IMG/VR virus record: IMGVR_UViG_2721755498_000001
DNA: 47,208 bases
Origin: a virus
Taxonomy: Duplodnaviria; Heunggongvirae; Uroviricota; Caudoviricetes
Reading direction: 5' to 3' (one strand)
Under the pieces are notes generated by a model, which had not been told where the DNA came from, made no database searches, and saw nothing but the letters and a program-made list of their open reading frames with translations. Made by a program: the position numbers and the translations under genes. Positions 3,285 to 46,578 of this stretch are shown in pieces. Within the stretch, counting starts at the first letter, position 1, and every line of letters starts with the position of its first letter.

Positions 3285-4451
3285 TTATATTGTTATCTTC
3301 TTCAAGCTTGTTTGTCCATCATATTCCTTCAGATATGAGCCATAGTGCCTGAAAAGCATCTCCGGTCCTTTATGCCCCATTTGAGCTGCAAGCCAAAACA
3401 GGTTTGCTCCCCGGCTGATATGGCGGGTGGCGAATGTATGCCTAGTTTGATATGGATTTCTGTAACGAATACCTGCTTTTCGCAATGTTGGCACCCATGC
3501 TTTTTTTCTGATTGCATCAGCACTTGCCCATGGCTTATTGGTCTTTGGATCTTCAAAGACAGTAGCATCCTTCATGAATGTAAATGGCTTCTGGTTTATC
3601 AACGCCAACATTGCTTCTTCAGTCAGTTCAACTTTACGGGTACCGGCTTTTGTCTTTGTTCCTTTGATAACTCCGACAACACTTGCGCTCTGAACATGGG
3701 CTGTTTTTCCAACAAAGTCGATATCATGCCATCGTAGGGCACATAATTCAGAACTACGCAGGCCTGTATGTATGGCGAACCGGAACAGATTTTCCCATTG
3801 TTTGTTTCCGGCTGCTGCTAGTAATGCATCAACTTCTGCTGGTGATAGCGGATCAACCACATAGCTGCTTTCTGCTTCTGACTTATCACTTTGGTAGCGC
3901 GAAGCTGTTACTAACGATACGGGGTTAATTTGAAGTACCCCATCGGTCACGGCTTCATCAAGTGCTGACCGTAGGAAAGATAACTGGTTGCGAATGGTTT
4001 TTAAGGTTGTTTTCTGGCTTTGAATCCACGCTTTCAGGGTTGCTGGTGTTAATTCACTTGCAGGGCAAATGTGAAGTGAGGCTAACGCACTACGGCATTT
4101 TTTATAGCCACCAATCGTAGAGGGTGAAAGTTTTCTTGTTTCGCAGATTTCAAGATATTCGTCCAGGTACATCTTTACCGTTTTGCCTGCAGCAGCATTA
4201 CCAAAAATTTTCAAACGAGCAGAACGGGGAAAATATTCTGCATAAATGAATGTTCCCCTTTCGATCTTATTATGGATTTCGCCGAGTGTACGCTCGGCGT
4301 ATTTAATGTTCTTTGGTGTTACTTCCAGATTGGAAAGCGGCTCACGACATCTAACTCCTTTGTAGGTGAAAGTTATATTGATCGTTTCTCCCTGGCGGTG
4401 TTTCCTGATTGTTACGCCGCGCGGTAGTTTGAGCAGTTTTGTCTGGCCCAT
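3285..4451 (-). CDS. int: Phage integrase, tyrosine recombinase
   Basis: 388 aa; C-terminal catalytic region with R...H..R...Y context (HTFATRHISRGANLFWLAAQMGHKGPEMLFRHYGSY); next to xis and the att end. Confidence 0.9.
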   Translation of the reverse strand: MGQTKLLKLPRGVTIRKHRQGETINITFTYKGVRCREPLSNLEVTPKNIKYAERTLGEIHNKIERGTFIYAEYFPRSARLKIFGNAAAGKTVKMYLDEYLEICETRKLSPSTIGGYKKCRSALASLHICPASELTPATLKAWIQSQKTTLKTIRNQLSFLRSALDEAVTDGVLQINPVSLVTASRYQSDKSEAESSYVVDPLSPAEVDALLAAAGNKQWENLFRFAIHTGLRSSELCALRWHDIDFVGKTAHVQSASVVGVIKGTKTKAGTRKVELTEEAMLALINQKPFTFMKDATVFEDPKTNKPWASADAIRKKAWVPTLRKAGIRYRNPYQTRHTFATRHISRGANLFWLAAQMGHKGPEMLFRHYGSYLKEYDGQTSLKKITI

Positions 4452-4657
4452 TTTGCAACCTCACTAAGATCAATCCACCTCTCCTTAACGCCTTCAACCT
4501 TTAAAACCTGAACACCTTCACGCCAAACACCGCGCTGTACACGTTTGTTTATTGCTTCAGGAGTTTCGCCAGTTTCTTTGCAATAAGTTGAGATAGGAAC
4601 ACAATCGAGGTTCAGCATACGTTTCTCCATTATCCCGTCTGCACACGGGAGCAACAT
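4412..4657 (-). CDS. xis: Excisionase-like DNA-binding protein (start may be an internal ATG)
   Basis: Small ORF overlapping the int start by about 40 nt; winged-helix-like KERWIDLSEVAKWAR segment; classic xis-int overlap arrangement. Confidence 0.55.
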   Translation of the reverse strand: MLLPCADGIMEKRMLNLDCVPISTYCKETGETPEAINKRVQRGVWREGVQVLKVEGVKERWIDLSEVAKWARQNCSNYRAA

Positions 4658-4659
4658 TA

Positions 4660-5550
4660 TTAACGAATAGTGTCGTTACTTTGAAGTACAGCAAATGCCA
4701 TTAATACTTCTAAAGTATATCTTCTATAAAATTTAACAAAACCAACATAGAAAACATAGACGAAGAAAAAGCTAAGCATTATTGAAAGTAAACTATAAAG
4801 ATAATCACTATGAGTACATAATCGATAAATAAAGGTTGGAACTGATACCCAAAATGAAATTATAAAGATTAAACATATGTTTCTGCAAAAACCATATAAT
4901 GCAACATAGTTTTGAATTTTTGTTTGATGTTGTTTTGAAAACTCATAAACATAATGATATGCCAATCTGAAGAGATCATCATCAAGTCCGTTTTTATCTT
5001 GTAATAATTGGCGATTTGTTATGAACTTTTTCTCATAACCTTCTTTGATCATTAACCATGTTGTATTAGCTAAATGAAATGGTAGAGATTGAGAATAACA
5101 TAGTTTTTGTGTTATAAAATCCCATAGTATTATTGGACATAATACGCATTTGATTATGCGATTCTTTATTTTTGTTTTTTTATCAGCGCTTCTCTCATCG
5201 CATGATGGGCTACAAATGCTTTCTGAGGTATCTATCAATTTTTTAAATAGATATTTGGAAGGATATCCTAATTCTTTATTCATGTATTTTTCGATAAAAA
5301 ATGCTGACGTGATAGAAATAAAATGTCCAGCTATATAAGATATAATAACTATTGAAGCGTAGTTCAAAATGCCAAAGATTTGACTTTGACCTCTGAGCAA
5401 TTCACTTAAGTCAATAACAATATCTAGATCGAATGTCAAACCACAGAAATACATTAATAGGATAAAAAAACCACCTGGTATTAAATATCCAAGAAAGTCA
5501 TAGAATGAGAATGGATTTTGATTCATTGTTGCTCTCCAATAATTTTTCAA
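4660..5550 (-). CDS. Multi-pass membrane protein of unknown function (AT-rich moron)
   Basis: 296 aa with hydrophobic helices at both ends and a soluble middle; strongly AT-rich DNA unlike the flanking phage genes. Confidence 0.55.
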   Translation of the reverse strand: MKNYWRATMNQNPFSFYDFLGYLIPGGFFILLMYFCGLTFDLDIVIDLSELLRGQSQIFGILNYASIVIISYIAGHFISITSAFFIEKYMNKELGYPSKYLFKKLIDTSESICSPSCDERSADKKTKIKNRIIKCVLCPIILWDFITQKLCYSQSLPFHLANTTWLMIKEGYEKKFITNRQLLQDKNGLDDDLFRLAYHYVYEFSKQHQTKIQNYVALYGFCRNICLIFIISFWVSVPTFIYRLCTHSDYLYSLLSIMLSFFFVYVFYVGFVKFYRRYTLEVLMAFAVLQSNDTIR

Positions 5551-5634
5551 TTTGTAATATAACCTATATCTATATGTTAATAAATTACTTATATGTTCTT
5601 TTATGGCAGAGTTTGAATTCGTACGTGCTGATTT

Positions 5635-7587: not shown

Positions 7588-7723
7588 ACAAAACAGAGAA
7601 GAACACCTGCGGTGGCAGCCGCCCGGATGGATTGGGTTATGAGCCCGTCGTCCGGTGATGCTCTTCTCTGTTTTGTAAAAAGAGCGGTACCAGCCGGAAG
7701 CAAGGGTACAAACTGGTACCGCC
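7588..7723 (-). ncRNA. Structured non-coding leader / candidate sRNA in the leftward early transcript
   Basis: 15-bp perfect inverted repeat acaaaacagagaaga (7588-7602) / tcttctctgttttgt (7662-7676) with a GC-rich internal loop; second hairpin gcggtaccag (7683-7692) / ctggtaccgc (7714-7723); no ORF with an RBS in 7540-8240. Confidence 0.3.
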
Positions 7724-11628: not shown

Positions 11629-12053
11629 TGAGTAATAAATATTGCCAGGCGCTGGTGGAGCTGCGGAACAAACCAGCCCATGAACTGAAGGAAGTGGGCG
11701 ATCAGTGGCGCACGCCGGATAACATTTTCTGGGGAATTAACACCCTGTTTGGCCCGTTTGTTCTGGATCTGTTCACTGATGGTGATAACGCCAAATGTGC
11801 CGCTTATTACACTGCGGAAGACAACGCGCTGGCGCATGACTGGTCTGAACGTCTTCCCGCCAACCAATCAGGAGGTGGCAACCATGCTGGGATACCGTTC
11901 GGTGAATGCAGCGGTGGAGCATCTTCGCGCACTGGAGAAAAAAGGCGTCATCACGATAAAGCGTGGCGTGGCCCGGGGGATAACGCTTCATACCGCGGTG
12001 AAGGACGACGACAGCGAGGCGGTCGGGATTATCCGCGCACTGCTTGCCGGTGA
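11628..12053 (+). pseudogene. Truncated phage-type Dam N6-adenine methyltransferase (N-terminal about 80 aa only, yfdM-like)
   Basis: [49 protein letters not shown]...AHDWSERL matches the phage Dam N-terminus; no DPPY/NPPY catalytic motif follows; the rest of the frame is low-complexity. Confidence 0.5.
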
Positions 12054-12111
12054 GGAAAACGCAAGGCTGCGTGCAACCCACTGGTTACATGAGAGGGACC
12101 TGAAAGTATGA
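11884..12111 (+). CDS. Small protein with LexA-like winged-helix DNA-binding domain (no peptidase domain)
   Basis: Strong RBS AGGAGGTG before the ATG; [35 protein letters not shown] aligns with LexA [34 protein letters not shown]. Confidence 0.5.
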
Positions 12112-12497
12112 AGCTGATCCTGCCTTTTCCGCCCAGCGTGAACACGTACTGGCGACACCCCAACAAAGGGGCGTTTGCTGGTAAGAGCCTGATAAGCGCG
12201 GCGGGGCGAAAATTCCAGAGCGCGGCGTGCGCAGCAATAGTTGAGCAGTTACGTCGTCTGCCGAAACCAACGTCGGCACCTGCTTCAGTGGAGATCGTGT
12301 TGTTTCCTCCGGATAACCGGATCCGCGATCTGGACAACTATAACAAGGCGCTGTTTGACGCCCTGACCCACGCGGGTGTGTGGGAAGACGACAGTCAGGT
12401 GAAAAGAATGCTGGTGGAGTGGGGACCGGTTATCCCGAAAGGGAAGGTCGAGATCACTATCAGTAAGTATGAGAAACCGGCGGGTGCAGCCGCCTGA
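12108..12497 (+). CDS. rusA: RusA-family Holliday junction resolvase
   Basis: 129 aa; [25 protein letters not shown] matches the RusA catalytic region (DLDN...DD.Q). Confidence 0.85.
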
Positions 12498-12516
12498 TTA
12501 AGAGGAGAAACGAAGT

Positions 12517-13314
12517 ATGAATAATCTGATGGTCATTGATGGTATTGAAGTTCGTCGTGATGCTTATGGGCGTTACAGCCTGAACGATCTGCACAGGGCT
12601 GCCGGTTCTCTGGATAAGCATAAGCCTGCATTCTGGCTCCGCAATGAGCAAACTGAACGTTTAATAAGCGAGTTGCAGATTTGCAACTCGGTCAATATAG
12701 AGCCAGTTAACGTTATTCGTGGCGGAAATAACCAGGGGACGTATGTCTGCAAAGAACTGGTGTATGCCTATGCAATGTGGATCAGCCCGGCATTCCATCT
12801 GAAGGTGATCCGTACTTTCGATATGGTAACCAGCGCACCGGAAAAATTATCCGGGCAGGCTGCTGACAAGATGCAGGCTGGTGTGATTCTGCTGGACTTT
12901 ATGCGCAGGGAGTTAAACCTGTCTAACTCTTCAGTGCTTGGTGCCTGTCAGAAACTCCAGGAGGCTGTTGGCTTACCGAATCTGGCACCGCGCTATGCCA
13001 TTGATGCTCCTGCTGACGCGCCTGATGGCTCAAGTCGCCCTACGCTGTCGCTGAGTGCACTGCTGAAACAGTATGGTATCCGCCTGACGGCTAATCAGGC
13101 ATATCACCAGATGGCTAAGCTGGGGATCGTTGAACAACGCGAACGATACAGCCGTACCGCGATTAACAACATCAAAAAATTCTGGTCGCTGACAGCGAAA
13201 GGCTGCATGTTCGGCAAGAACATCACCAGTCCCGCAAATCCGCGCGAGACGCAGCCGCATTTCTTCGAATCCCGATTCCCTGAGCTGTTAAAGCTGCTCG
13301 ATACCGTTCATTGA
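12517..13314 (+). CDS. KilA-N domain protein (antirepressor-like)
   Basis: N-terminal pattern DGIEVRRDAYGRYSLNDLHRAAG...KPAFWLRNEQT typical of KilA-N. Confidence 0.55.
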   Translation: MNNLMVIDGIEVRRDAYGRYSLNDLHRAAGSLDKHKPAFWLRNEQTERLISELQICNSVNIEPVNVIRGGNNQGTYVCKELVYAYAMWISPAFHLKVIRTFDMVTSAPEKLSGQAADKMQAGVILLDFMRRELNLSNSSVLGACQKLQEAVGLPNLAPRYAIDAPADAPDGSSRPTLSLSALLKQYGIRLTANQAYHQMAKLGIVEQRERYSRTAINNIKKFWSLTAKGCMFGKNITSPANPRETQPHFFESRFPELLKLLDTVH

Positions 13315-13315
13315 G

Positions 13316-14311
13316 GTGACCGTGAGAGCACTACTGACCCCTGAAATTGCCCCGCGTATGGGGATCGTATTGTTCAGGCCCGGTTCAGAGCTGATGCCCC
13401 TGTTTATGCAGGGGCGTGTCCTGCTGGAGCCTGAGCCGGAGCATTATTCATCTTTCGCCAGTGGTGCCGTTCCCGCGGCGTCACAACCGCTGGCGGATGA
13501 TCCTGCTGTTCGGGCCGTGTTCCGCAATGAGGCAGTGATCCGTCGTGCTGGTGGCGTGGAATGTCTTGAAAGCTGGTTACTTCGTGAAAAAGGCTGCCAG
13601 TGGCCTCATTCCGACTGGCACAGCGAGAACATGACCACAATGCGACACGCTCCGGGTGCAATCCGTCTGTGCTGGCACTGCGATAACCAGCTGCGCGATC
13701 AGTTCACGGAACGGCTGGAATCAATGGCAACGGATAACTGTGCCCGCTGGGTGTTGTCTGTTGTGCGTCGGGATCTCGGTTTTGATGACAGTCACGTTGT
13801 GACAATGCCGGAACTGTGCTGGTGGCTGATTCGTAATGACCTGGCGGATGCCTTACCGGAAAGTGCAGCCCGTAAGGCACTGAGATTACCGAAGCCTGTT
13901 GTGCCGTCTGTCACCCGGGAAAGTGACCTTGTGCCTTCGGTTCCTGCTACCAGCATCATCCAGGATAAGGCGAAAAAGGTGCTGGCGCTGAAAGTGGATC
14001 CGGAGTCGCCGGAGTCTTTTATGTTACGCCCAAAACGTCGCCGCTGGGTTAATGAAAAGTACACGCGCTGGGTTAAGACACAGCCGTGTGCATGTTGTGG
14101 AAAGCCCGCTGATGATCCCCACCACCTGATAGGTTACGGTCAGGGTGGAATGGGAACAAAAGCGCATGACCTTTTTGTGTTGCCTTTGTGCAGAAAGCAT
14201 CACGACGAGCTGCATGCGGATACCGTGGCATTTGAAGAAAAGTATGGCTCCCAGTTGGAGCTGATATTTCGTTTTATCGATCGCGCGCTGGCAATTGGCG
14301 TATTGGCGTAA
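13316..14311 (+). CDS. Phage protein with C-terminal Cys/His zinc-binding motif (DUF968-like)
   Basis: 331 aa; C-terminal CACCGKP...HH...CRKHHDELH; position in the nin-like region. Confidence 0.45.
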   Translation: MTVRALLTPEIAPRMGIVLFRPGSELMPLFMQGRVLLEPEPEHYSSFASGAVPAASQPLADDPAVRAVFRNEAVIRRAGGVECLESWLLREKGCQWPHSDWHSENMTTMRHAPGAIRLCWHCDNQLRDQFTERLESMATDNCARWVLSVVRRDLGFDDSHVVTMPELCWWLIRNDLADALPESAARKALRLPKPVVPSVTRESDLVPSVPATSIIQDKAKKVLALKVDPESPESFMLRPKRRRWVNEKYTRWVKTQPCACCGKPADDPHHLIGYGQGGMGTKAHDLFVLPLCRKHHDELHADTVAFEEKYGSQLELIFRFIDRALAIGVLA

Positions 14312-14324
14312 GTGGAGAACGAGC

Positions 14325-15077
14325 ATGAACCTTGAAGCCTTACCAAAATATTACTCCCCAAAATCTCCAAAATTGAGCGATGACGCACCGGCGACAGGCT
14401 CAGGTGGTTTAACGATTACGGATGTGATGGCTGCGCAGGGGATGGTGCAGTCGAAAGCACCGCTTGGGTTTGCCTTATTCCTGGCAAAAGTTGGTGTTCA
14501 GGATCCTCAGTTTGCGATTGAAGGTCTGCTCAATTACGCGATGGCACTGGATAACCCGACATTGAACAAATTGAGTGAAGAAACCCGGTTACAGATCATC
14601 CCTTACCTTGTGAATTTTGCCTTTGCTGATTATTCCAGGTCTGCGGCAAGTAAGGCTCGCTGTGAGCATTGTGCTGGTACTGGATTTCATAACGTATTGC
14701 GCGAAGTGGTGAAACACTCCAGAAGCGGGGAATCTGTTATCAAGGAAGAGTGGGTGAAGGAACTATGTCAGCATTGCCATGGTAAGGGAGAAGTCAGCAC
14801 AGCGTGCAGAGGGTGTAAGGGAAAAGGTATTGTCCTGGATGAAAAAAGGACCCGACTTCATGGCACGCCTGTTTATAAGATTTGTGGGCGTTGCAATGGA
14901 AACCGGTTTAGCCGTTTACCAACCACACTGGCGCGGCATCATGTCCAGAAGCTGGTACCAGACCTGACGGATTATCAGTGGTACAAAGGATATGCAGATG
15001 TCATTGATAAACTGGTTACAAAGTGCTGGCAGGAAGAAGCATATGCAGAGATACAATTGAGAAAGGTAACAAGATAA
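14325..15077 (+). CDS. Q: Late-gene antiterminator Q-like protein
   Basis: Cys-rich zinc motif (CEHCAGTG...CQHCHGKG...CRGCKGKG...CGRCNG); RBS GGAG before the ATG at 14325; followed by a strong terminator. Confidence 0.65.
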   Translation: MNLEALPKYYSPKSPKLSDDAPATGSGGLTITDVMAAQGMVQSKAPLGFALFLAKVGVQDPQFAIEGLLNYAMALDNPTLNKLSEETRLQIIPYLVNFAFADYSRSAASKARCEHCAGTGFHNVLREVVKHSRSGESVIKEEWVKELCQHCHGKGEVSTACRGCKGKGIVLDEKRTRLHGTPVYKICGRCNGNRFSRLPTTLARHHVQKLVPDLTDYQWYKGYADVIDKLVTKCWQEEAYAEIQLRKVTR

Positions 15078-15183
15078 ATGGTTTTCGCCGAAGATGACGA
15101 CATGATGCTTGCATTTTTCAAAAAATATGGATAAGATTTTCCCAACGATGGGCTTTGTATGTCTACCGTTGATAAGATTTAAG

Positions 15184-15210
15184 AACCCGCCGCTGAGCGG
15201 GTTTTTTTGT
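15184..15210 (+). terminator. Rho-independent terminator (tR'-like) downstream of Q
   Basis: aacccgccgctgagcgggtttttttgt: GC stem plus T7 run. Confidence 0.65.
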
Positions 15211-15357
15211 GCCTGATGTCTCATGAAACTATGAAATGGATTGGTGCGTTAAACATTTTTTCTTATTATTTTTTAGATTTTGGAGAGATGGTTAACGTCT
15301 GTATTCCAGAAACTCGATGAATATTTAATAAATTAGTTTCAATGATGCTTCTAGGTT

Positions 15358-15783
15358 ATGAGTGTAATGAAAAAGGTATTAATAGCAGCGATAGGTTTTT
15401 GTTTGATTGGTTGTGCAGGTATGAAATTACCTGAGTATTCGCAAGTTAAAGCAAGTCCGTATTATACAGATTGCCGTGCGTTTGCCATGGATGTTTATAA
15501 AAATGATGGATACAGCAAAATTGCGAAAACTACTATCCTTAGCATGGATGATGTGAAGGCTAGATATATTGTGACAGGGTGTGTAGTTGCTATGGGAAAA
15601 AACACTGTAGAGGAAGTCAAAGCTGATCTCTCTGCTAAAGGGAGTTCTTTTGGGCTTATCAGTGGAGCTTGCTCTAGTGCGGCATGTCGGGTTGATGTAG
15701 AGCAGCAAATGAACGCTTATGTACTTGGTAGTTATTATGCTGCAAATAAAAAATTCCCGGATAACATGAAAGCAGAGTTTTAA
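15358..15783 (+). CDS. Lipoprotein of unknown function (moron)
   Basis: Signal peptide with lipobox LIGC (MKKVLIAAIGFCLIGCAG); AT-rich; bracketed by near-identical terminators. Confidence 0.7.
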   Translation: MSVMKKVLIAAIGFCLIGCAGMKLPEYSQVKASPYYTDCRAFAMDVYKNDGYSKIAKTTILSMDDVKARYIVTGCVVAMGKNTVEEVKADLSAKGSSFGLISGACSSAACRVDVEQQMNAYVLGSYYAANKKFPDNMKAEF

Positions 15784-15860
15784 GAAAACCTTGTTTTCGA
15801 TTATATGCCGAAGATAAATGTTAGTAACGGCATAATAAGTAAATATATAGCTGTGATAGC

Positions 15861-15887
15861 AACCCGCCACTGAGCGGGTTTTTTGTA
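15861..15887 (+). terminator. Rho-independent terminator, near-duplicate of the one at 15184
   Basis: aacccgccactgagcgggttttttgta; one substitution in the stem and one shorter T-run relative to 15184-15210. Confidence 0.65.
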
Positions 15888-15982
15888 CCTGTAAACCTGG
15901 TGCAGTACAGTAAACACGCTGGTGGTCGTGAATACTGACTTTTTATCTTGCTGGCTTTTTAGACAAGAGTTATTGGTATGTC

Positions 15983-16210
15983 ATGTTAACCAGAAGGGAA
16001 AAAGACATGCTAAAACAGCAAGATATGACAGAAACCGCCGCCGCAGTCCTTCATTTCTTACCTGCTGACAAGTGGGTAACGCCACGCATGATGACGAGAA
16101 CTACCGGAGTAAGCGAAGCCCGGTGCCAGTTAATACTGACTCAGTTAGTTCTGGCGGGTCTGGCGAAGGATAACGGCGGGTACGGGAATAAATTCAGACG
16201 CTGCCAGTAA
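15983..16210 (+). CDS. Small hypothetical protein
   Basis: 75-aa ORF; no motif recognised. Confidence 0.3.
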   Translation: MLTRREKDMLKQQDMTETAAAVLHFLPADKWVTPRMMTRTTGVSEARCQLILTQLVLAGLAKDNGGYGNKFRRCQ

Positions 16211-16360
16211 TGGCGGTTTCCTGCTGTGAAAATGGGCGGCTGGTGGGTGTTGGTAGCACCTGCCAGCCATTCGCTCATGCTTACTGGTCACAAGCGAACC
16301 ACGGCCCACTGCTTTAGCGCAAAAGCAGAGTGAGCCTACCAGAGTTACGCTTACTGATCC

Positions 16361-17413
16361 ATGAAAAATACTGTAAAAATAAACAGTGTTGATTTAATCA
16401 ACGCTGATTGCCTGCATTTTATTCAGTCCCTGCCTGATGATTCCATTGACCTGATTGTTACCGATCCGCCGTACTTCAAGGTGAAACCCAACGGCTGGGA
16501 CAATCAGTGGAAAGGGGACGAAGATTACCTTAAGTGGCTGGACCACTGTCTGGCCCAGTTCTGGCGGGTGTTAAAACCTGCCGGAAGCCTTTACCTGTTC
16601 TGTGGGCATCGCCTGGCATCTGATATTGAGATCATGATGCGTGAACGTTTCAACGTGCTTAACCATATCATCTGGGCGAAGCCGTCCGGACGTTGGAATG
16701 GGTGTAATAAAGAAAGTCTGCGCGCATATTTTCCTGCCACAGAGCGCGTTCTGTTTGCTGAACATTACCAGGGGCCATATCGCGGCAAAAGTGACGGCTA
16801 TGCGGCAAAAGAAAGGGAACTCAAACAGCACATAATGGCACCGCTGATATCGTATTTCAGGGATGCTCGTGCCGAACTGGGTATAACGGCAAAACAAATT
16901 GCCGAAGCCACAGGTAAGAAAAATATGGTTTCCCACTGGTTTGGTGCCAGTCAGTGGCAGTTGCCGAATGAGGCTGACTATCGGAAGTTACAGGCACTGT
17001 TTTCCCGTATAGCGGCAGAGAAGTTTCAGGAACAACAACTGGAACAACCACACCACCAGCTGGTGGCATCTTATGATTCACTGAATCGCAAATATTCTGA
17101 ATTGCTGGATGAGTTTAAATCTCTCCGGCGCTATTTCTCCGTATCAGTCTCCGTGCCTTATACCGATGTCTGGATGCATAAACCCGTTCAGTTCTACCCG
17201 GGTAAACATCCGTGTGAGAAACCGGCGGATATGCTCAGGCAAATAATCAATGCCAGTAGTCGACCTGGTGATCTGGTTGCTGATTTTTTTATGGGATCCG
17301 GTTCCACAATAAAAGCAGCAATGGCGCTGGGGCGTCGGGCCTTAGGTGTTGAGCTTGAGTCAGAGCGGTTTAACCAGACAGTGAAAGAGATAAACGAGCT
17401 GGTGGGGAAATAA
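16361..17413 (+). CDS. Orphan beta-class DNA methyltransferase (N6-adenine or N4-cytosine)
   Basis: Motif [11 protein letters not shown] near the N-terminus and motif I FFMGSGST near the C-terminus (beta-class order); no adjacent nuclease gene. Confidence 0.8.
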
Positions 17414-17480
17414 TCTGGTGGCCACGTCAGGTGGCCTTTTTATTTCCATTACACAGCACCCGCATCTGCGAGGTGGGGTT

Positions 17481-17696
17481 ATGAAATCCATGGATAAGTT
17501 AACAACGGGTGTCGCCTATGGCACCTCAGCAGGTAGTGCCGGGTACTGGTTTTTACAGTTGCTCGATAAAGTCACGCCCTCACAGTGGGCGGCAATAGGT
17601 GTGCTGGGTAGTCTGGTATTTGGCCTGCTGACGTACCTGACAAACCTTTATTTCAAGATTAAAGAAGATAAGCGCAAGGCTGCGAGAGGTGGATAA
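17481..17696 (+). CDS. S: Pinholin, phage 21 S21-like
   Basis: Dual-start MKSMDK motif; [13 protein letters not shown]...[13 protein letters not shown] transmembrane segments; 71 aa. Confidence 0.8.
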
Positions 17697-18193
17697 TGCC
17701 TCCATCATTACGAAAAGCTGTTGCTGCTGCTATTGGTGGCGGAGCAATTGCTATAGCATCAGTGTTAATCACTGGCCCAAGTGGTGACGATGGCCTGGAA
17801 GGTGTCAGCTACATACCATACAAAGATATCGTTGGCGTATGGACTGTATGTCACGGACACACCGGAAAAGACATCATGCTCGGTAAAACGTATACCGAAG
17901 CAGAATGCAAAGCCCTCCTGAATAAAGACCTTGCCACGGTTGCCAGACAAATTAACCCGTACATCAAAGTCGATATACCGGAAACAACGCGCGGCGCTCT
18001 TTACTCGTTCGTCTACAACGTGGGTGCTGGCAATTTCAGAACATCGACGCTTCTTCGCAAAATAAACCAGGGCGATATCAAAGGCGCATGTGACCAGCTA
18101 CGTCGCTGGATATACGCTGGCGGTAAGCAATGGAAAGGCCTGATGACTCGTCGTGAGATTGAGCGTGAAGTCTGTTTGTGGGGGCAGCAATGA
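17696..18193 (+). CDS. R: SAR endolysin (lysozyme with N-terminal signal-anchor-release domain), R21-like
   Basis: Gly/Ala-rich N-terminal SAR segment ([18 protein letters not shown]) followed by a lysozyme-like region; directly after the holin. Confidence 0.8.
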
Positions 18194-18633
18194 GCAGAGT
18201 AACCGCGATTATCTCCGCTCTGATTATCTGCATCATCGTCTGCCTGTTATGGGCTGTTAATCATTACCGTGATAACGCCATCGCCTACAAAGAGCAGCGC
18301 GACAAAGCCGCATCCACTATCGCTGATATGCAGAAGCGTCAACGTGATGTAGCAGAACTCGACGCCAGATACACAAAGGAGCTTGCTGATGCTAACGCGA
18401 CTATCGAAAGTCTTCGTGCTGATGTTTCTGCTGGGCGTAAGTGGCTGCGCGTCAAAGCTGTCTGTCCAGACATGCATAAAATCACCGCCGCCTCCGGCGT
18501 GGATGATGGCACCAGCCCCAGACTTACTGACACCGCTCAACGGGATTATTTCACCCTTAGAAAGCGGATTGAAACCAGTGATAAAATGATCCGAGGCTTG
18601 CAGCAATACATTCGCACGCAGTGTGTAAGATGA
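18190..18633 (+). CDS. Rz: Rz-like inner-membrane spanin
   Basis: N-terminal transmembrane segment, coiled-coil-like remainder; overlaps the endolysin end. Confidence 0.7.
18383..18589 (+). CDS. Rz1: Rz1-like outer-membrane lipoprotein spanin, embedded in Rz in the +1 frame
   Basis: Signal peptide with lipobox VSGC ([12 protein letters not shown]) and a proline-rich segment; fully nested in Rz. Confidence 0.6.
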
Positions 18634-43534: not shown

Positions 43535-43895
43535 TCATTGCAAGGGCTCACAACCAGTAGTGTTGAGAAAACCATCGGAGAAATGAGGCTAAGCCTTTGA
43601 ATTTACATAGTACAAAAAAGATACTTTTCCTCATAATGTGAGCTAATTTTATGTTTCGTTTGATGATTGGACCGGTCTCGAAAACCGTAGACACATAGTA
43701 TGCGTTAATTTATGAACAAACTACTTGTCTGCTGTTTTTCTGTCATTAGTCGTATATAGAATGATTCTCTATGCCTAACAAAGCATCACCAGTGCTAGAT
43801 TACGTTGTAGTCACTGTTTAAATATCCAGATAAAACATTTCCTTCTGGGTTGAATGAGTGATAAAGTTTCACCCATTAGACCCCTTGGAGGAATT

Positions 43896-45329
43896 ATGTC
43901 TGAATTTGAAGTGTTGGCACAGCATCTGCTGAAGGAAGCCGAGGCGGAAGAAAAGCTGCGACAGGAAAATGATAAAAAGCTTATCGAGAAAGTGCTGGAA
44001 ATCTATGATCAGAAGTATGTGGCTGAATTACTGAGAAAAGTCGGAAAAAATGAGTGGAGCCGTGAAACCATTAACCGCTGGATTAATGGCAAGTGTTTAC
44101 CAAAATCGTTGACTTCAGTAGAAGAGTCTCTTCTGCGTAAGATGCTACCAGAACCACCTGCAAACCATCCGGAATATGCTTTCCGCTTCATTGACTTATT
44201 TGCTGGAATTGGAGGGATACGGAAAGGTTTTGAGGCCATTGGAGGCCAGTGTGTTTTTACCAGTGAATGGAATAAAGATGCTGTGCGTACATACAAGGCC
44301 AACTGGTTTAACGATGAACAGGTGCATAAATTCAATCTCGATATTCGGGAAGTCACGCTGAGTGATAAAACCGATGTATTGGAAACGGATGCTTATGCAT
44401 ATATTGATGAGCATGTGCCGGATCATGATGTGCTTCTTGCGGGGTTCCCGTGCCAGCCATTTAGCCTTGCTGGTGTTAGTAAGAAAAACTCACTTGGTCG
44501 TGCGCATGGTTTTGAATGTGAAGCACAAGGAACACTTTTTTTTGACGTGGCACGTATTATACGAGCAAAAAAACCGGCAATTTTTGTGCTGGAAAATGTC
44601 AAAAATCTGAAGAGCCATGATAAGGGTAAAACTTTCAAAGTCATTATGGAGACCCTTGACGAGCTGGGCTACGAAGTTGCCGATGCTGCAGAAATGGGAA
44701 AAAACGATCCAAAGATTATCGATGGGAAGCATTTTTTGCCTCAGCATCGTGAACGCATTGTTCTGGTCGGATTTAGACGAGATCTGAATATTCACAAGGG
44801 GTTTACCTTGCGTGATATCAGTCGTTTTTATCCGGAACACCGCCCATCATTTGGTGAATTGCTGGAGCCTGTAGTCGACAGTAAATATATACTTACGCCA
44901 AAACTATGGGAGTACCTTTATAACTACGCCAAAAAGCATGCAGCCAAGGGGAATGGTTTTGGCTTTGGGTTGGTCAATCCTGAGAATAAGGAAAGCATTG
45001 CACGCACACTTTCTGCCAGATATCACAAAGACGGATCAGAAATTCTTATTGATCGTGGTTGGGATATGGCAACGGGAGAGGCTGACTTTATGAATGAGAG
45101 TAATCAGGCTCGTCGACCACGCAGGCTGACTCCCCGAGAGTGCGCACGCCTTATGGGATTTGAAAAACCTGGAGGGAAACCATTCCGTATTCCGGTTTCA
45201 GATACTCAGTCATATCGGCAGTTCGGTAACTCAGTTGTGGTGCCAGTATTTGAAGCTGTTGCCAGACTTCTGGAACCCTATATCCTCAAAGCTGTTTCTG
45301 CTGATGCTGGTAAGACTGGGCAGCCTTGA
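43896..45329 (+). CDS. DNA cytosine-5 methyltransferase, Dcm / M.EcoRII-like
   Basis: Motif [16 protein letters not shown], motif [10 protein letters not shown], motif VI ENVKNL; N-terminal region close to E. coli Dcm; 477 aa from the RBS-supported ATG, the length recalled for M.EcoRII. Confidence 0.9.
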
Positions 45330-45363
45330 GAACATCTCCCGGCCTTTTAAGCCGGGAGTCAGC

Positions 45364-46578
45364 CTATGATAGTTCAGCGTAAAGCTCTATCAGCTCAGTA
45401 ATGAATGCTCCGAGCGTTATTAATTCTTCTCTAACTGCTTCTGGGTATTTTTTATGTAAAGTTGATGGTACAACGAGTCTGACACCCGCATCTTTCATTT
45501 CTCGGTATTGTGCTGAAGAAACACCTTCTTGCAGTGTAAATAAATGTACCTGATGGATTTTATCTGCTTCATTCAGTATCTGACGCCAGCGATCTTTGCA
45601 GGTGGTCTTTACTGCCAGCATACGTAAGTTTTCTACAGGAAATTCAACGTTATGATATGCCTCTGCTGAAGGAAACAGGAAATCTGGTTTTTTATTACCT
45701 TCAGTAACTGCCTGAGTGGAGAAATGCCGTAGTCCGTGCTCGATAAAAAGCTTCTCTAGGTGAAGTTCAAGTGATTTGCCTGCCCTTGATTTACGTCGAT
45801 TACTGACAGAGTTGGCTAATGCAATAAACTCATCTACAGAATCGAATCCTTTCTTAATAATATCAAGAACATGTAATTCCTCGACGAGTAGAAAAATATC
45901 ATACTCGACACGCCGACGGTCAATCAGTTGCTCATCTGGATCCTTGGAGTTTTTAGCATAATGGCCAGCAGCATATTGAATAATTTCGTTTCCAGAAGGA
46001 AAACGCTTCTTCCAGTCTTCAGGAATAACATATTTATGATTTACTGGAGTTTGCTGAAGAGACAATCCGCCCAAAATTTGTCCGGCAGGGCCGGAAATTA
46101 GGGTTCCAGGTATGATTTCGCCAATAGCAGACTCGATGATATCCTCTTCATCGGGATTGACGCAGACCCATATATCTACCTCGGAACAGTCAGTGTTCTG
46201 TTCGTTTAACCTGAAAGCAAGAATTGTGAGGGCTCCTGTATTTTCAGGGTTCTGTAATGGACTTCCTCTCCCCCAGCGCGTAATTCTTTTTTCGTTTCGG
46301 GTCTTACCAAAATAACGGTTGTTGTAATAAATTGCGCGTGCTTGGGTATCAGGGCAATCATGGGATGATACATGCGCAGTAAGGAAGACTGAAGGGTTCA
46401 GTTCGCGAGTATGATTGATAGATGGAAAAAGCTTTTCAACGATATTTGAGGGGATATAAAGTCCGACCTGATGGCCACCTGTTGCGCCTGTGTCGTTTGC
46501 AGAAAGGCGTTTGATGTAGATAAAGTAATTCCCGCTTGCGATATCAAGCAGCCAGTTATGAAAAACCGACATATACAT
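45364..46578 (-). CDS. Type IIE restriction endonuclease, EcoRII-like
   Basis: 404 aa, the length recalled for R.EcoRII; convergent with a Dcm-like methyltransferase; identity from memory, not search-confirmed. Confidence 0.65.
   Translation of the reverse strand: MYMSVFHNWLLDIASGNYFIYIKRLSANDTGATGGHQVGLYIPSNIVEKLFPSINHTRELNPSVFLTAHVSSHDCPDTQARAIYYNNRYFGKTRNEKRITRWGRGSPLQNPENTGALTILAFRLNEQNTDCSEVDIWVCVNPDEEDIIESAIGEIIPGTLISGPAGQILGGLSLQQTPVNHKYVIPEDWKKRFPSGNEIIQYAAGHYAKNSKDPDEQLIDRRRVEYDIFLLVEELHVLDIIKKGFDSVDEFIALANSVSNRRKSRAGKSLELHLEKLFIEHGLRHFSTQAVTEGNKKPDFLFPSAEAYHNVEFPVENLRMLAVKTTCKDRWRQILNEADKIHQVHLFTLQEGVSSAQYREMKDAGVRLVVPSTLHKKYPEAVREELITLGAFITELIELYAELS

Follow-up and report, generated by a model that had tools for sequence, protein, structure and literature searches.

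A lipoprotein gene of moron type between two near-identical terminator-like hairpins behind a lambda-family Q gene

The window analysed here, a stretch of 47,208 nucleotides from a tailed phage (IMG/VR record IMGVR_UViG_2721755498_000001), corresponds to a lambdoid prophage of Escherichia coli. In its late region, an AT-rich segment encoding a small lipoprotein is bracketed by two near-identical terminator-like hairpins, just behind the gene of the late antiterminator Q. The locus has the make-up of an ordinary moron: it occupies the cargo site best known among lambdoid phages, a terminator-like hairpin brackets it on either side, and its lipoprotein product is "dark". We consider it likely that the segment is a self-contained promoter–lipoprotein–terminator unit, placed in the cargo slot that follows the pR'/tR' region of a lambda-family Q gene. 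No current idea is overturned by this observation, whose value is that of a tidy test case and of an uncharacterised protein family.

An optional segment between two hairpins

The two hairpins form a direct repeat, AACCCGCC[G/A]CTGAGCGGGTTTTTT, at positions 15184-15207 and 15861-15884. It is 24 nt long with 23 identical positions, the starts are 677 nt apart, and the sole difference is one loop base, G at 15192 and A at 15869. Both copies lie on the plus strand and fold into a 7-bp stem with five G-C pairs (AACCCGC/GCGGGTT), a 6-nt loop and a U-tract. The predicted terminator copy 1 (15184..15208) has the loop CGCTGA, seven T and a folding energy of -14.1 kcal/mol; the predicted copy 2 (15861..15884) has the loop CACTGA, six T and -12.0 kcal/mol. 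The likeness continues after the T-run, where both read GT[G/A]CCTG. At up to three mismatches, these two are the only matches to the hairpin in the 47-kb window, and none is found in 100 dinucleotide shuffles. The position of copy 1 is annotated as a terminator in phages SfV and Ayreon, and that of copy 2 in Ayreon. A terminator scan of the window returned copy 2 as its top terminator-like match and did not list copy 1, possibly because pairing in the latter can run on beyond the stem into its T-run. Ayreon and the Stx2c phages have one and the same loop base in both hairpins; there, as in mEp460, no mismatch separates the two 24-mers. An earlier note, made from the letters of the sequence, had spoken of near-identical terminators flanking an AT-rich lipoprotein segment, and this description is accurate in each of its parts, namely the repeat, the interior of 36.1% G+C and the LIGC lipobox.

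The segment is optional. In phages vB_EcoM-720R4 (flanks 99.1% identical) and SfV (96%), the Q gene and pR' are followed by one hairpin, then by a 75-amino acid (aa) open reading frame (ORF) and a methylase gene. Alignment with Ayreon as the filled version shows that what both lack is precisely one repeat together with the interior, 677 bp in all. This optional unit can be drawn at 15208..15884 on the plus strand, its boundaries sliding anywhere within the repeat. In 720R4, the junction joins the upstream flank of copy 1 to the loop base and downstream flank of copy 2. In SfV, the loop base of copy 1, its seven T and GTGCCTTGATGT, which are the first 11 nt past hairpin 1 in the window, are followed by the common downstream sequence. 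The interior (15208-15860) was found in 214 of 5426 complete E. coli genomes (about 4%), always at full length and with 97.5-100% identity. Both flanks are as in the window in 166 of these 214 genomes, and the empty arrangement occurs in about 186 genomes. Among the carriers are JJ1886 and other ST131 strains, strains of O111:H8, and phages of the Stx2c and Stx2k types; those of the Stx2c type have the cassette with this Q gene on one side and stx2c on the other. The existence of relatives with a single terminator and no cassette, which is the check that the earlier note had called for, supports the discrete, optional side of the "autonomous gene cassette" proposed in the earlier note. The base composition of the unit is also deviant: the lipoprotein coding sequence has 39.1% G+C, compared with 47-50% for the Q, 75-aa ORF and methylase genes and 49.2% for the whole window. 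Insertion sequences were seen in this region in two genomes. An IS21-family element stands directly upstream of the start of the cassette match (window position about 15239), beside the predicted -35 element, in E. coli 23CRST030 (L010), in which no Q is annotated; in NZ_OZ501612.1, IS1 interrupts the region.

The bracketed layout recurs in a Salmonella prophage (L012), where a Q of unrelated type (DUF1133/PF06530) precedes it and the holin gene comes after it. The lipoprotein encoded there is 77% identical to that of the window, with a synonymous divergence (dS) of 1.6. Its left hairpin is almost identical to the one in E. coli, and its right hairpin has a different loop and a similar 11-nt tail. 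In the window, a 77-nt AT-rich stretch separates the lipoprotein stop codon from hairpin 2. It holds an inverted repeat, TATGCCG/CGGCATA, at 15805..15835 on the plus strand (7 bp, 17-nt loop), which overlaps the inverted repeat I1 of the repeat scan. The Salmonella version lacks the stretch, with 13 nt between its stop codon and the terminator. In the same prophage (4440-4810), a deletion has removed the 75-aa ORF and the greater part of the methyltransferase gene, so that the right-hand hairpin adjoins what is left of the latter, its C-terminal third.

The module on the left side of the cassette is a Q/pR' unit of the lambda family. The Q gene (14325..15077, plus strand) encodes 250 aa from the ATG at 14325, its ORF opening with a TTG at 14295. 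The protein belongs to Pfam PF03589 (Antiterm, E=1e-53) and is homologous to the lambda Q chains in PDB entries 7ubm (E=1e-37) and 4mo1; identical DNA is annotated "antitermination protein Q" by RefSeq. A pR'-type late promoter follows at 15109..15152 on the plus strand. It consists of TTGCAT (15109-15114), a 17-nt spacer, TAAGAT (15132-15137), 6 nt and AACGATGGG (15144-15152), and its position weight matrix (PWM) score of 10.2 is the best within 15080-15184. Since lambda pR' (NC_001416) reads TTGACT-17-TAAATT-6-AACGATGGG, with the same spacing and an identical last element, the promoter geometry and the initial transcribed element coincide with those of lambda. We take AACGATGGG to be, as in lambda, the sigma-70-dependent pause site where Q loads. 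Transcription would start near 15144. Judged by sequence and position, hairpin copy 1 is the tR' equivalent of this unit, and without Q the pR' RNA would end there after about 62 nt. The claim that the cassette adjoins a Q-dependent terminator is borne out in that the upstream gene is a lambda-family Q and that promoter and pause element are in register with lambda. The likeness to the lambda pR'–6S RNA–tR' region extends to the Q family, the promoter geometry, the identical AACGATGGG and a downstream terminator that Q must override. The differences lie in the length of the terminated RNA (about 62 nt here, 194 nt in lambda), in the hairpin sequence, which is unrelated to lambda tR', and in the second hairpin copy that follows the cassette.

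The lipoprotein and its family

The lipoprotein gene extends over 15367..15783 on the plus strand and encodes 138 aa from the ATG at 15367, whereas PGAP and gene callers use the ATG at 15358 (141 aa). The N-terminus reads MKKVLIAAIGFCLIGC followed by AG, with the signal peptide MKKVLIAAIGFCLIG, a lipobox L-I-G-C, in keeping with the consensus [LVI][ASTVI][GAS]C, whose Cys16 is encoded at 15412-15414, and an Ala at position +2. Nine homologues, 54-99% identical, keep the full length and a lipobox [LIMS][VIAT]GC with an invariant G-C pair. Their +2 residue is Ala, or Ser in one of them, and C36, C72, C102 and C107 are invariant. Comparison with the Salmonella homologues gave ratios of nonsynonymous to synonymous divergence (dN/dS) of 0.09-0.16, with saturated dS (1.4-1.6), and the sequence comparisons thus indicate purifying selection. 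The AlphaFold2 model is helical, with a mean confidence (pLDDT) of 81.6.

These data bear directly on the possibility that the frame opened by chance in a non-coding AT-rich spacer. The lack of any family annotation anywhere and the RefSeq label "hypothetical protein" would fit with it. The conserved length, lipobox and four cysteines of the homologues, the low dN/dS and the confident model all argue the other way, and the neighbouring 37-aa ORF provides a contrast, being, as we read it, broken by a stop in the Salmonella version. A chance frame is accordingly extremely improbable, and by the measure of sequence conservation the gene is real and conserved. A lipobox corresponding to the LIGC named in the earlier note is kept in all nine homologues. 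Since an outer-membrane destination follows when Asp is absent from position +2, the product is predicted to be exported, lipid-anchored at Cys16 and sorted to the outer membrane, with a small helical periplasmic domain stabilised by two disulfides. Other ORFs of the interior were set aside. The 37-aa ORF at 15207-15320, annotated in Ayreon and PhiR47_1 (phrog_37626), has the early stop in Salmonella and overlaps the predicted cassette promoter; an antisense 147-aa ORF (15427-15870) and an antisense promoter-like match (15488-15461) were treated as by-products of AT-rich DNA.

The family is small, with 11 clusters in a set of 5.8 billion proteins and eight representatives in an exhaustive profile search of 1.84 billion clusters, and in these searches it was confined to a small number of mobile elements of Enterobacteriaceae, plus one chromosomal case. 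Its members have been found in five kinds of sites: in E. coli, the slot between Q and lysis genes; in Salmonella, the equivalent slot with another Q in front; in further Salmonella prophages, the early-left region, preceded by genes of divergent orientation; phage-plasmids of Klebsiella and Buttiauxella, near DNA polymerase genes; and one chromosomal setting, beside a lipocalin gene. In the phage-plasmids, a second small lipoprotein gene of 99 aa starts 10 nt after the homologue (L007 3428-3727 in Klebsiella, L017 4446-4745 in Buttiauxella). In the Klebsiella element, its product has a lipobox LSGC and the gene is followed by a terminator, AACCCGCCAAACGGCGGGTTTTTT; the Buttiauxella one ends in an unrelated hairpin. 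This arrangement may represent an ancestral two-gene unit.

The hairpin as a module junction and the origin of the pair

IMG/VR was scanned for the exact 22-nt core of the hairpin, and the matches listed come from at least 120 contigs. The hairpin, CCCGCC[A/G]CTGAGCGGG followed by six to eight T, is a stock item, present in at least 82 distinct flank contexts. It lies downstream of at least 39 protein clusters, including three unrelated Q families (PF03589, PF06530/DUF1133 and PF06323), and also behind structural genes (P22-type portal, ClpP-like protease, tail completion protein and baseplate plug). Species-representative genomes gave 60 further matches, for example in Pseudomonas, Marinobacter, Nitrosomonas and Arthrobacter. 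Downstream of the T-run stands a loose consensus, nT[G/A]CC[T/C]G.AA, which often leads into GGAG..ATG. Convergence, selection on the loop or horizontal spread may each lie behind this wide distribution. Since hairpin and downstream motif recur together in so many contexts, the bases common to both copies at our locus lie within the consensus of a terminator class. The repeat is far beyond chance within the window, yet, given how common this hairpin is among phage terminators, the identity of the two copies says less in favour of a duplication than it would seem.

The partners of the hairpin change on either side. On its left are found the present Q-pR' region, a different pR' region (PhiR40_1, cdtI) or the end of the cassette; on its right, the module with the 75-aa ORF and methylase, the cassette, stx1 (in Lys8385Vzw) or a tRNA region, and the break to the tRNA region in O111:H8 falls exactly after the T-run. 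The states of both copies, loop G with seven T and GTG for copy 1, loop A with six T and GTA for copy 2, are each known as a single-copy allele in cassette-free phages. The hairpin is thus, from these sequence comparisons, a general junction between phage modules, and the locus illustrates how a short, widely shared terminator may serve as a breakpoint of module exchange. Among the IMG/VR matches listed, bracketing by two exact copies is a property of this cassette only, and stx1, a cargo found at the same position, has no second copy of the hairpin to close it. In phage PhiR40_1 (L004, 1430-1876, minus strand), a 148-aa ORF lies between a different short Q and the same hairpin. Its N-terminus can be read as of lipoprotein type (..LLSATIISGC..), which, if correct, would make it a second, unrelated lipoprotein cargo near a Q-tR' region.

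How the pair arose can be approached from these comparisons. The earlier note had proposed that the terminator was duplicated on insertion, and a single tR' could indeed have been copied by the event itself, either as a long target-site duplication or by a Campbell-type crossover of a circular cassette carrying one hairpin. Filled and empty sites do differ by exactly 677 bp, the interior plus one repeat, and the identity of the two 24-mers in Ayreon, mEp460 and the Stx2c phages is what a duplication would leave. So is the similarity past the T-run, which covers 7 nt in E. coli (GT[G/A]CCTG) and 11 nt in Salmonella (GTACCTGAAAC vs GTATCCGAAAC), and the uniqueness of the bracketing, with the unbracketed stx1 cargo as a counterpart, points the same way. 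The 653-bp interior, whose ORFs are those of the lipoprotein, the spurious 37-aa frame and one antisense frame, nevertheless contains no transposase or integrase, and neither the interior nor the cassette ends show terminal inverted repeats; since transposase and such repeats are both lacking, nothing suggests transposition. A target duplication of 24-35 bp would be unusual, the hairpin and its nT[G/A]CC[T/C]G motif stand in at least 82 unrelated contexts, each copy matches a different single-copy allele, and the right hairpin in Salmonella has another loop. The proposal is partly supported, as one possibility of rather low probability; the data do not demand a duplication at the moment of insertion, and a transposition-style target duplication is less likely than recombination at the hairpins.

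It is also conceivable, with a still lower probability, that the two hairpins do not share a common origin: the cassette would end in a terminator of its own, which happens to be of the commonest form in the class, and the pair would say nothing about how insertion took place. The exact 22-mer in Pseudomonas, Marinobacter, Nitrosomonas, Arthrobacter and others would agree with this. So would a likeness to the E. coli trp attenuator hairpin, which presumably differs in the loop alone; the Rfam search gave only weak, sub-threshold Trp- and Leu-leader matches, at both hairpins and caused by them. Homologues of the gene elsewhere end in quite different terminators, so that terminators appear to be readily swapped. 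Against an independent origin, two near-exact copies stand 677 bp apart and each is a shared mosaic breakpoint, which makes this possibility hard to separate from recombination at the hairpins. Moreover, the arrangement recurs in Salmonella and no other cargo among the matches listed shows bracketing. Homologous recombination at short shared hairpins, by which the cassette would be gained, lost and moved, is the mechanism that we retain, and a Campbell-type event would leave exactly this hairpin-bracketed structure.

Expression, function and neighbouring genes

Morons have been defined as extra DNA relative to related phages, with deviant G+C content and with their own promoter and terminator (PMC3594210). 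The cassette is present or absent among otherwise collinear phages, its base composition is deviant and, by its sequence, it has its own terminator. As in the HK97/HK022 concept of lambdoid morons (PMC3594210), extra DNA of low G+C content lies between conserved modules and comprises a single small gene, which a predicted promoter precedes and an intrinsic terminator follows. The cassette differs from such morons in that its expression from a repressed prophage is a prediction, and in that the closing terminator, elsewhere unrelated, is a near-copy of the phage's own tR', so that the unit is flanked by direct repeats.

The candidate sigma-70 promoter lies at 15241..15269 on the plus strand (TTGGTG, 17-nt spacer, TATTAT; PWM 8.9, the best score in 15184-15400). 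A cassette transcript would start near 15276, with a 5' leader of about 90 nt. At the aligned positions, the Salmonella prophage L012 has TTGGTA-18-TATCAT (9.8), the chromosomal homologue L014 has TTGCTG-16-TATCTT (6.8) and the Klebsiella phage-plasmid L007 has TTTTCA-15-TATTCT (6.6). A promoter-like element thus keeps its position in diverged homologues, which fits a classic moron. In addition, the homologues of other prophages and of a plasmid are found singly, behind genes that point the other way, and a gene so placed would bring its own promoter. For these reasons the "autonomous" side of the earlier note is plausible, and the gene is probably autonomous.

In a lysogen, this promoter would transcribe the lipoprotein gene, escaping hairpin 1 since it lies downstream of it. 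Because the barrier of hairpin 1 is bypassed in this way, hairpin 2 would replace it ahead of the late genes, stopping the cassette transcript before the methylase and the holin, endolysin and spanin genes. Upon induction, Q-modified polymerase would read through both hairpins, so that the lipoprotein would also be made with the late genes. The locus would thus be a clean natural example of a moron that, being placed after tR', must carry a replacement terminator that keeps the lysis genes silent. In the Stx2c and Stx2k phages, the cassette puts a second predicted terminator between pR' and stx2.

Several observations weigh against this picture of a self-contained moron. The candidate promoter is a moderate PWM match, about 28-77 equally good ones being present on the plus strand of the window, and a stricter promoter scan of the window reported none at 15241-15269. 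No expression data for the gene were found in the literature searched, expression could come solely from Q read-through, and the terminator status of both hairpins is deduced from their letters. Insertion and deletion both fit the comparison of filled and empty sites, since the SfV-type allele may be the target in its ancestral form or may have been left by a deletion that spared 11 nt at the edge of the cassette. The protein itself offers little functional guidance. It has no match in Pfam (E<=0.01), NCBIfam or PADLOC, its PHROG family (phrog_4748) is labelled "unknown function", a profile search of PDB sequences gave spurious uL14 matches only (E about 0.05), and fold searches of PDB and BFVD returned only generic helical or non-significant matches. 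No paper on this lipoprotein was found in the literature searched.

An alternative is a late-phase phage function, transcribed essentially only by Q-modified polymerase from pR' and without any lysogenic conversion, such as stopping progeny from re-adsorbing to debris or modulating lysis. The gene does lie inside the Q-dependent late unit, on the same strand and upstream of the lysis genes; in Salmonella, too, it stands between Q and the holin gene, and its own promoter is a prediction. An exclusively late role is improbable in our opinion, given that the gene is dispensable for otherwise near-identical phages, that homologues are found outside late operons (the early-left region in Salmonella, phage-plasmids, the chromosome beside lipocalin), that the promoter-like element is positionally conserved and that the spanin pair Rz/Rz1 is already encoded at 18178-18633. 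For the self-contained moron preferred here, a weakly supported guess is that the lipoprotein acts at the lysogen's envelope as a protective or exclusion factor that is also made late. Should it alter the envelope, it would be a lysogenic-conversion factor, with phage exclusion, resistance to serum or toxins, and protection of the progeny as possible outcomes. A role tied to one phage receptor is argued against by the family's spread over phages with different tails, phage-plasmids and a chromosome.

Comparison with known systems narrows the analogies. The stx genes of Stx phages occupy the same slot: in Lys8385Vzw, stx1AB comes after the same Q and pR' as in the window and a hairpin that varies from ours in the loop. 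In both cases the cargo is, or for the cassette would be, read by Q-modified polymerase on induction. They differ in that stx1 has no second hairpin copy and that the cassette product is an envelope lipoprotein and no toxin. The earlier note had suggested Bor- or Cor-like roles, and this resemblance was not upheld by any Pfam match, PHROG label or fold match; by sequence, the protein is neither Bor, Cor, Llp nor a spanin. Cor (of phi80, N15 and the mEp phages) and T5 Llp are lipoproteins that block the FhuA receptor. With them, it shares the features of a small phage lipoprotein of the outer membrane, and superinfection exclusion is a plausible functional analogy; no sequence or fold similarity to them was detected, however, and the window protein is about twice as long. 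Lambda Bor, a relative of Iss, is a prophage outer-membrane lipoprotein linked to serum resistance in the passage of PMC3594210 that cites it (its ref. 24). The likeness to Bor/Iss is that of a small prophage lipoprotein gene in a lambdoid late region and a candidate lysogenic-conversion factor. In contrast, there is no sequence relationship (no Pfam match), the window protein is predicted to be all-helical with two disulfides, and its gene is upstream of the lysis genes, that of Bor downstream. The cassette also differs from the o-spanin Rz1, as it lies 2.4 kb upstream of a separate Rz/Rz1 pair, is dispensable and has no adjoining i-spanin gene.

A bolder and rather improbable proposal links two ideas: that these proteins form an undescribed mobile-element family of disulfide-bonded helical outer-membrane lipoproteins, and that the stock hairpin with its loose downstream motif is a portable joint for homologous recombination. 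If the former were true, the carriers would be lambdoid prophages, SSU5-like phage-plasmids and plasmid-like contigs, and the function would be a new one at the envelope, unrelated to Bor, Cor, Llp and TraT. If the latter were true, bracketed cassettes could leave one site and enter the tR' slot of another, unrelated Q module, in a recombinase-free analogue of a cassette site.

The late region of the window (11847-18306) is 99.75% identical to the NADC1036 prophage, and 100% identical over 14900-16400, this identity being limited to the late region; phages mEp460 and Ayreon and a set of Stx2c phages match the region at about 99% identity. On the plus strand, a DUF968/HNH gene is followed by Q, a 106-nt spacer, hairpin 1, the AT-rich stretch with one good ORF and hairpin 2. 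Then come the 75-aa ORF (15983-16210) and the DNA methyltransferase gene (16361-17413; PF01555, phrog_331), which form the right-hand module (15983..17413). A third terminator-like hairpin, GGCCACGTCAGGTGGCC followed by a T-run, lies at 17420-17436, directly after the methyltransferase stop codon and before the holin gene, and is annotated as a terminator in SfV and Ayreon; its presence would bring the terminators that Q has to override in the late operon to at least three. The holin gene is followed by those of the lysozyme and of the spanin pair of the lysis cassette, the Rz1-like lipoprotein ORF (18383-18589) being embedded in Rz.

Further features lie at a distance from the cassette. E. 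coli K1 strain RS218 has been reported to encode sRNA-17, a small RNA repressed by ArcA, in a prophage resembling mEp460 (PMC7719688). Window positions 7684-7713 (plus strand) match its start at 29 of 30 positions, the RNA sequence being taken from the primers and alignment of that paper; a link to the cassette was discarded, as this site lies in the early region, away from it. The lowest G+C content of the window, 27-29% in windows of 653 nt, is reached at about 4650-5600, which overlaps a hypothetical-protein gene near the integrase (by approximate correspondence to the NADC1036 prophage) and may be another acquired cargo gene. Finally, at about 43750-46430 (via L020 782-3458, the NADC1036 locus), the prophage end that adjoins ssrA carries annotated genes for a type II restriction endonuclease and a DNA cytosine methyltransferase, a pair that looks like defence cargo at the edge of the attachment site.

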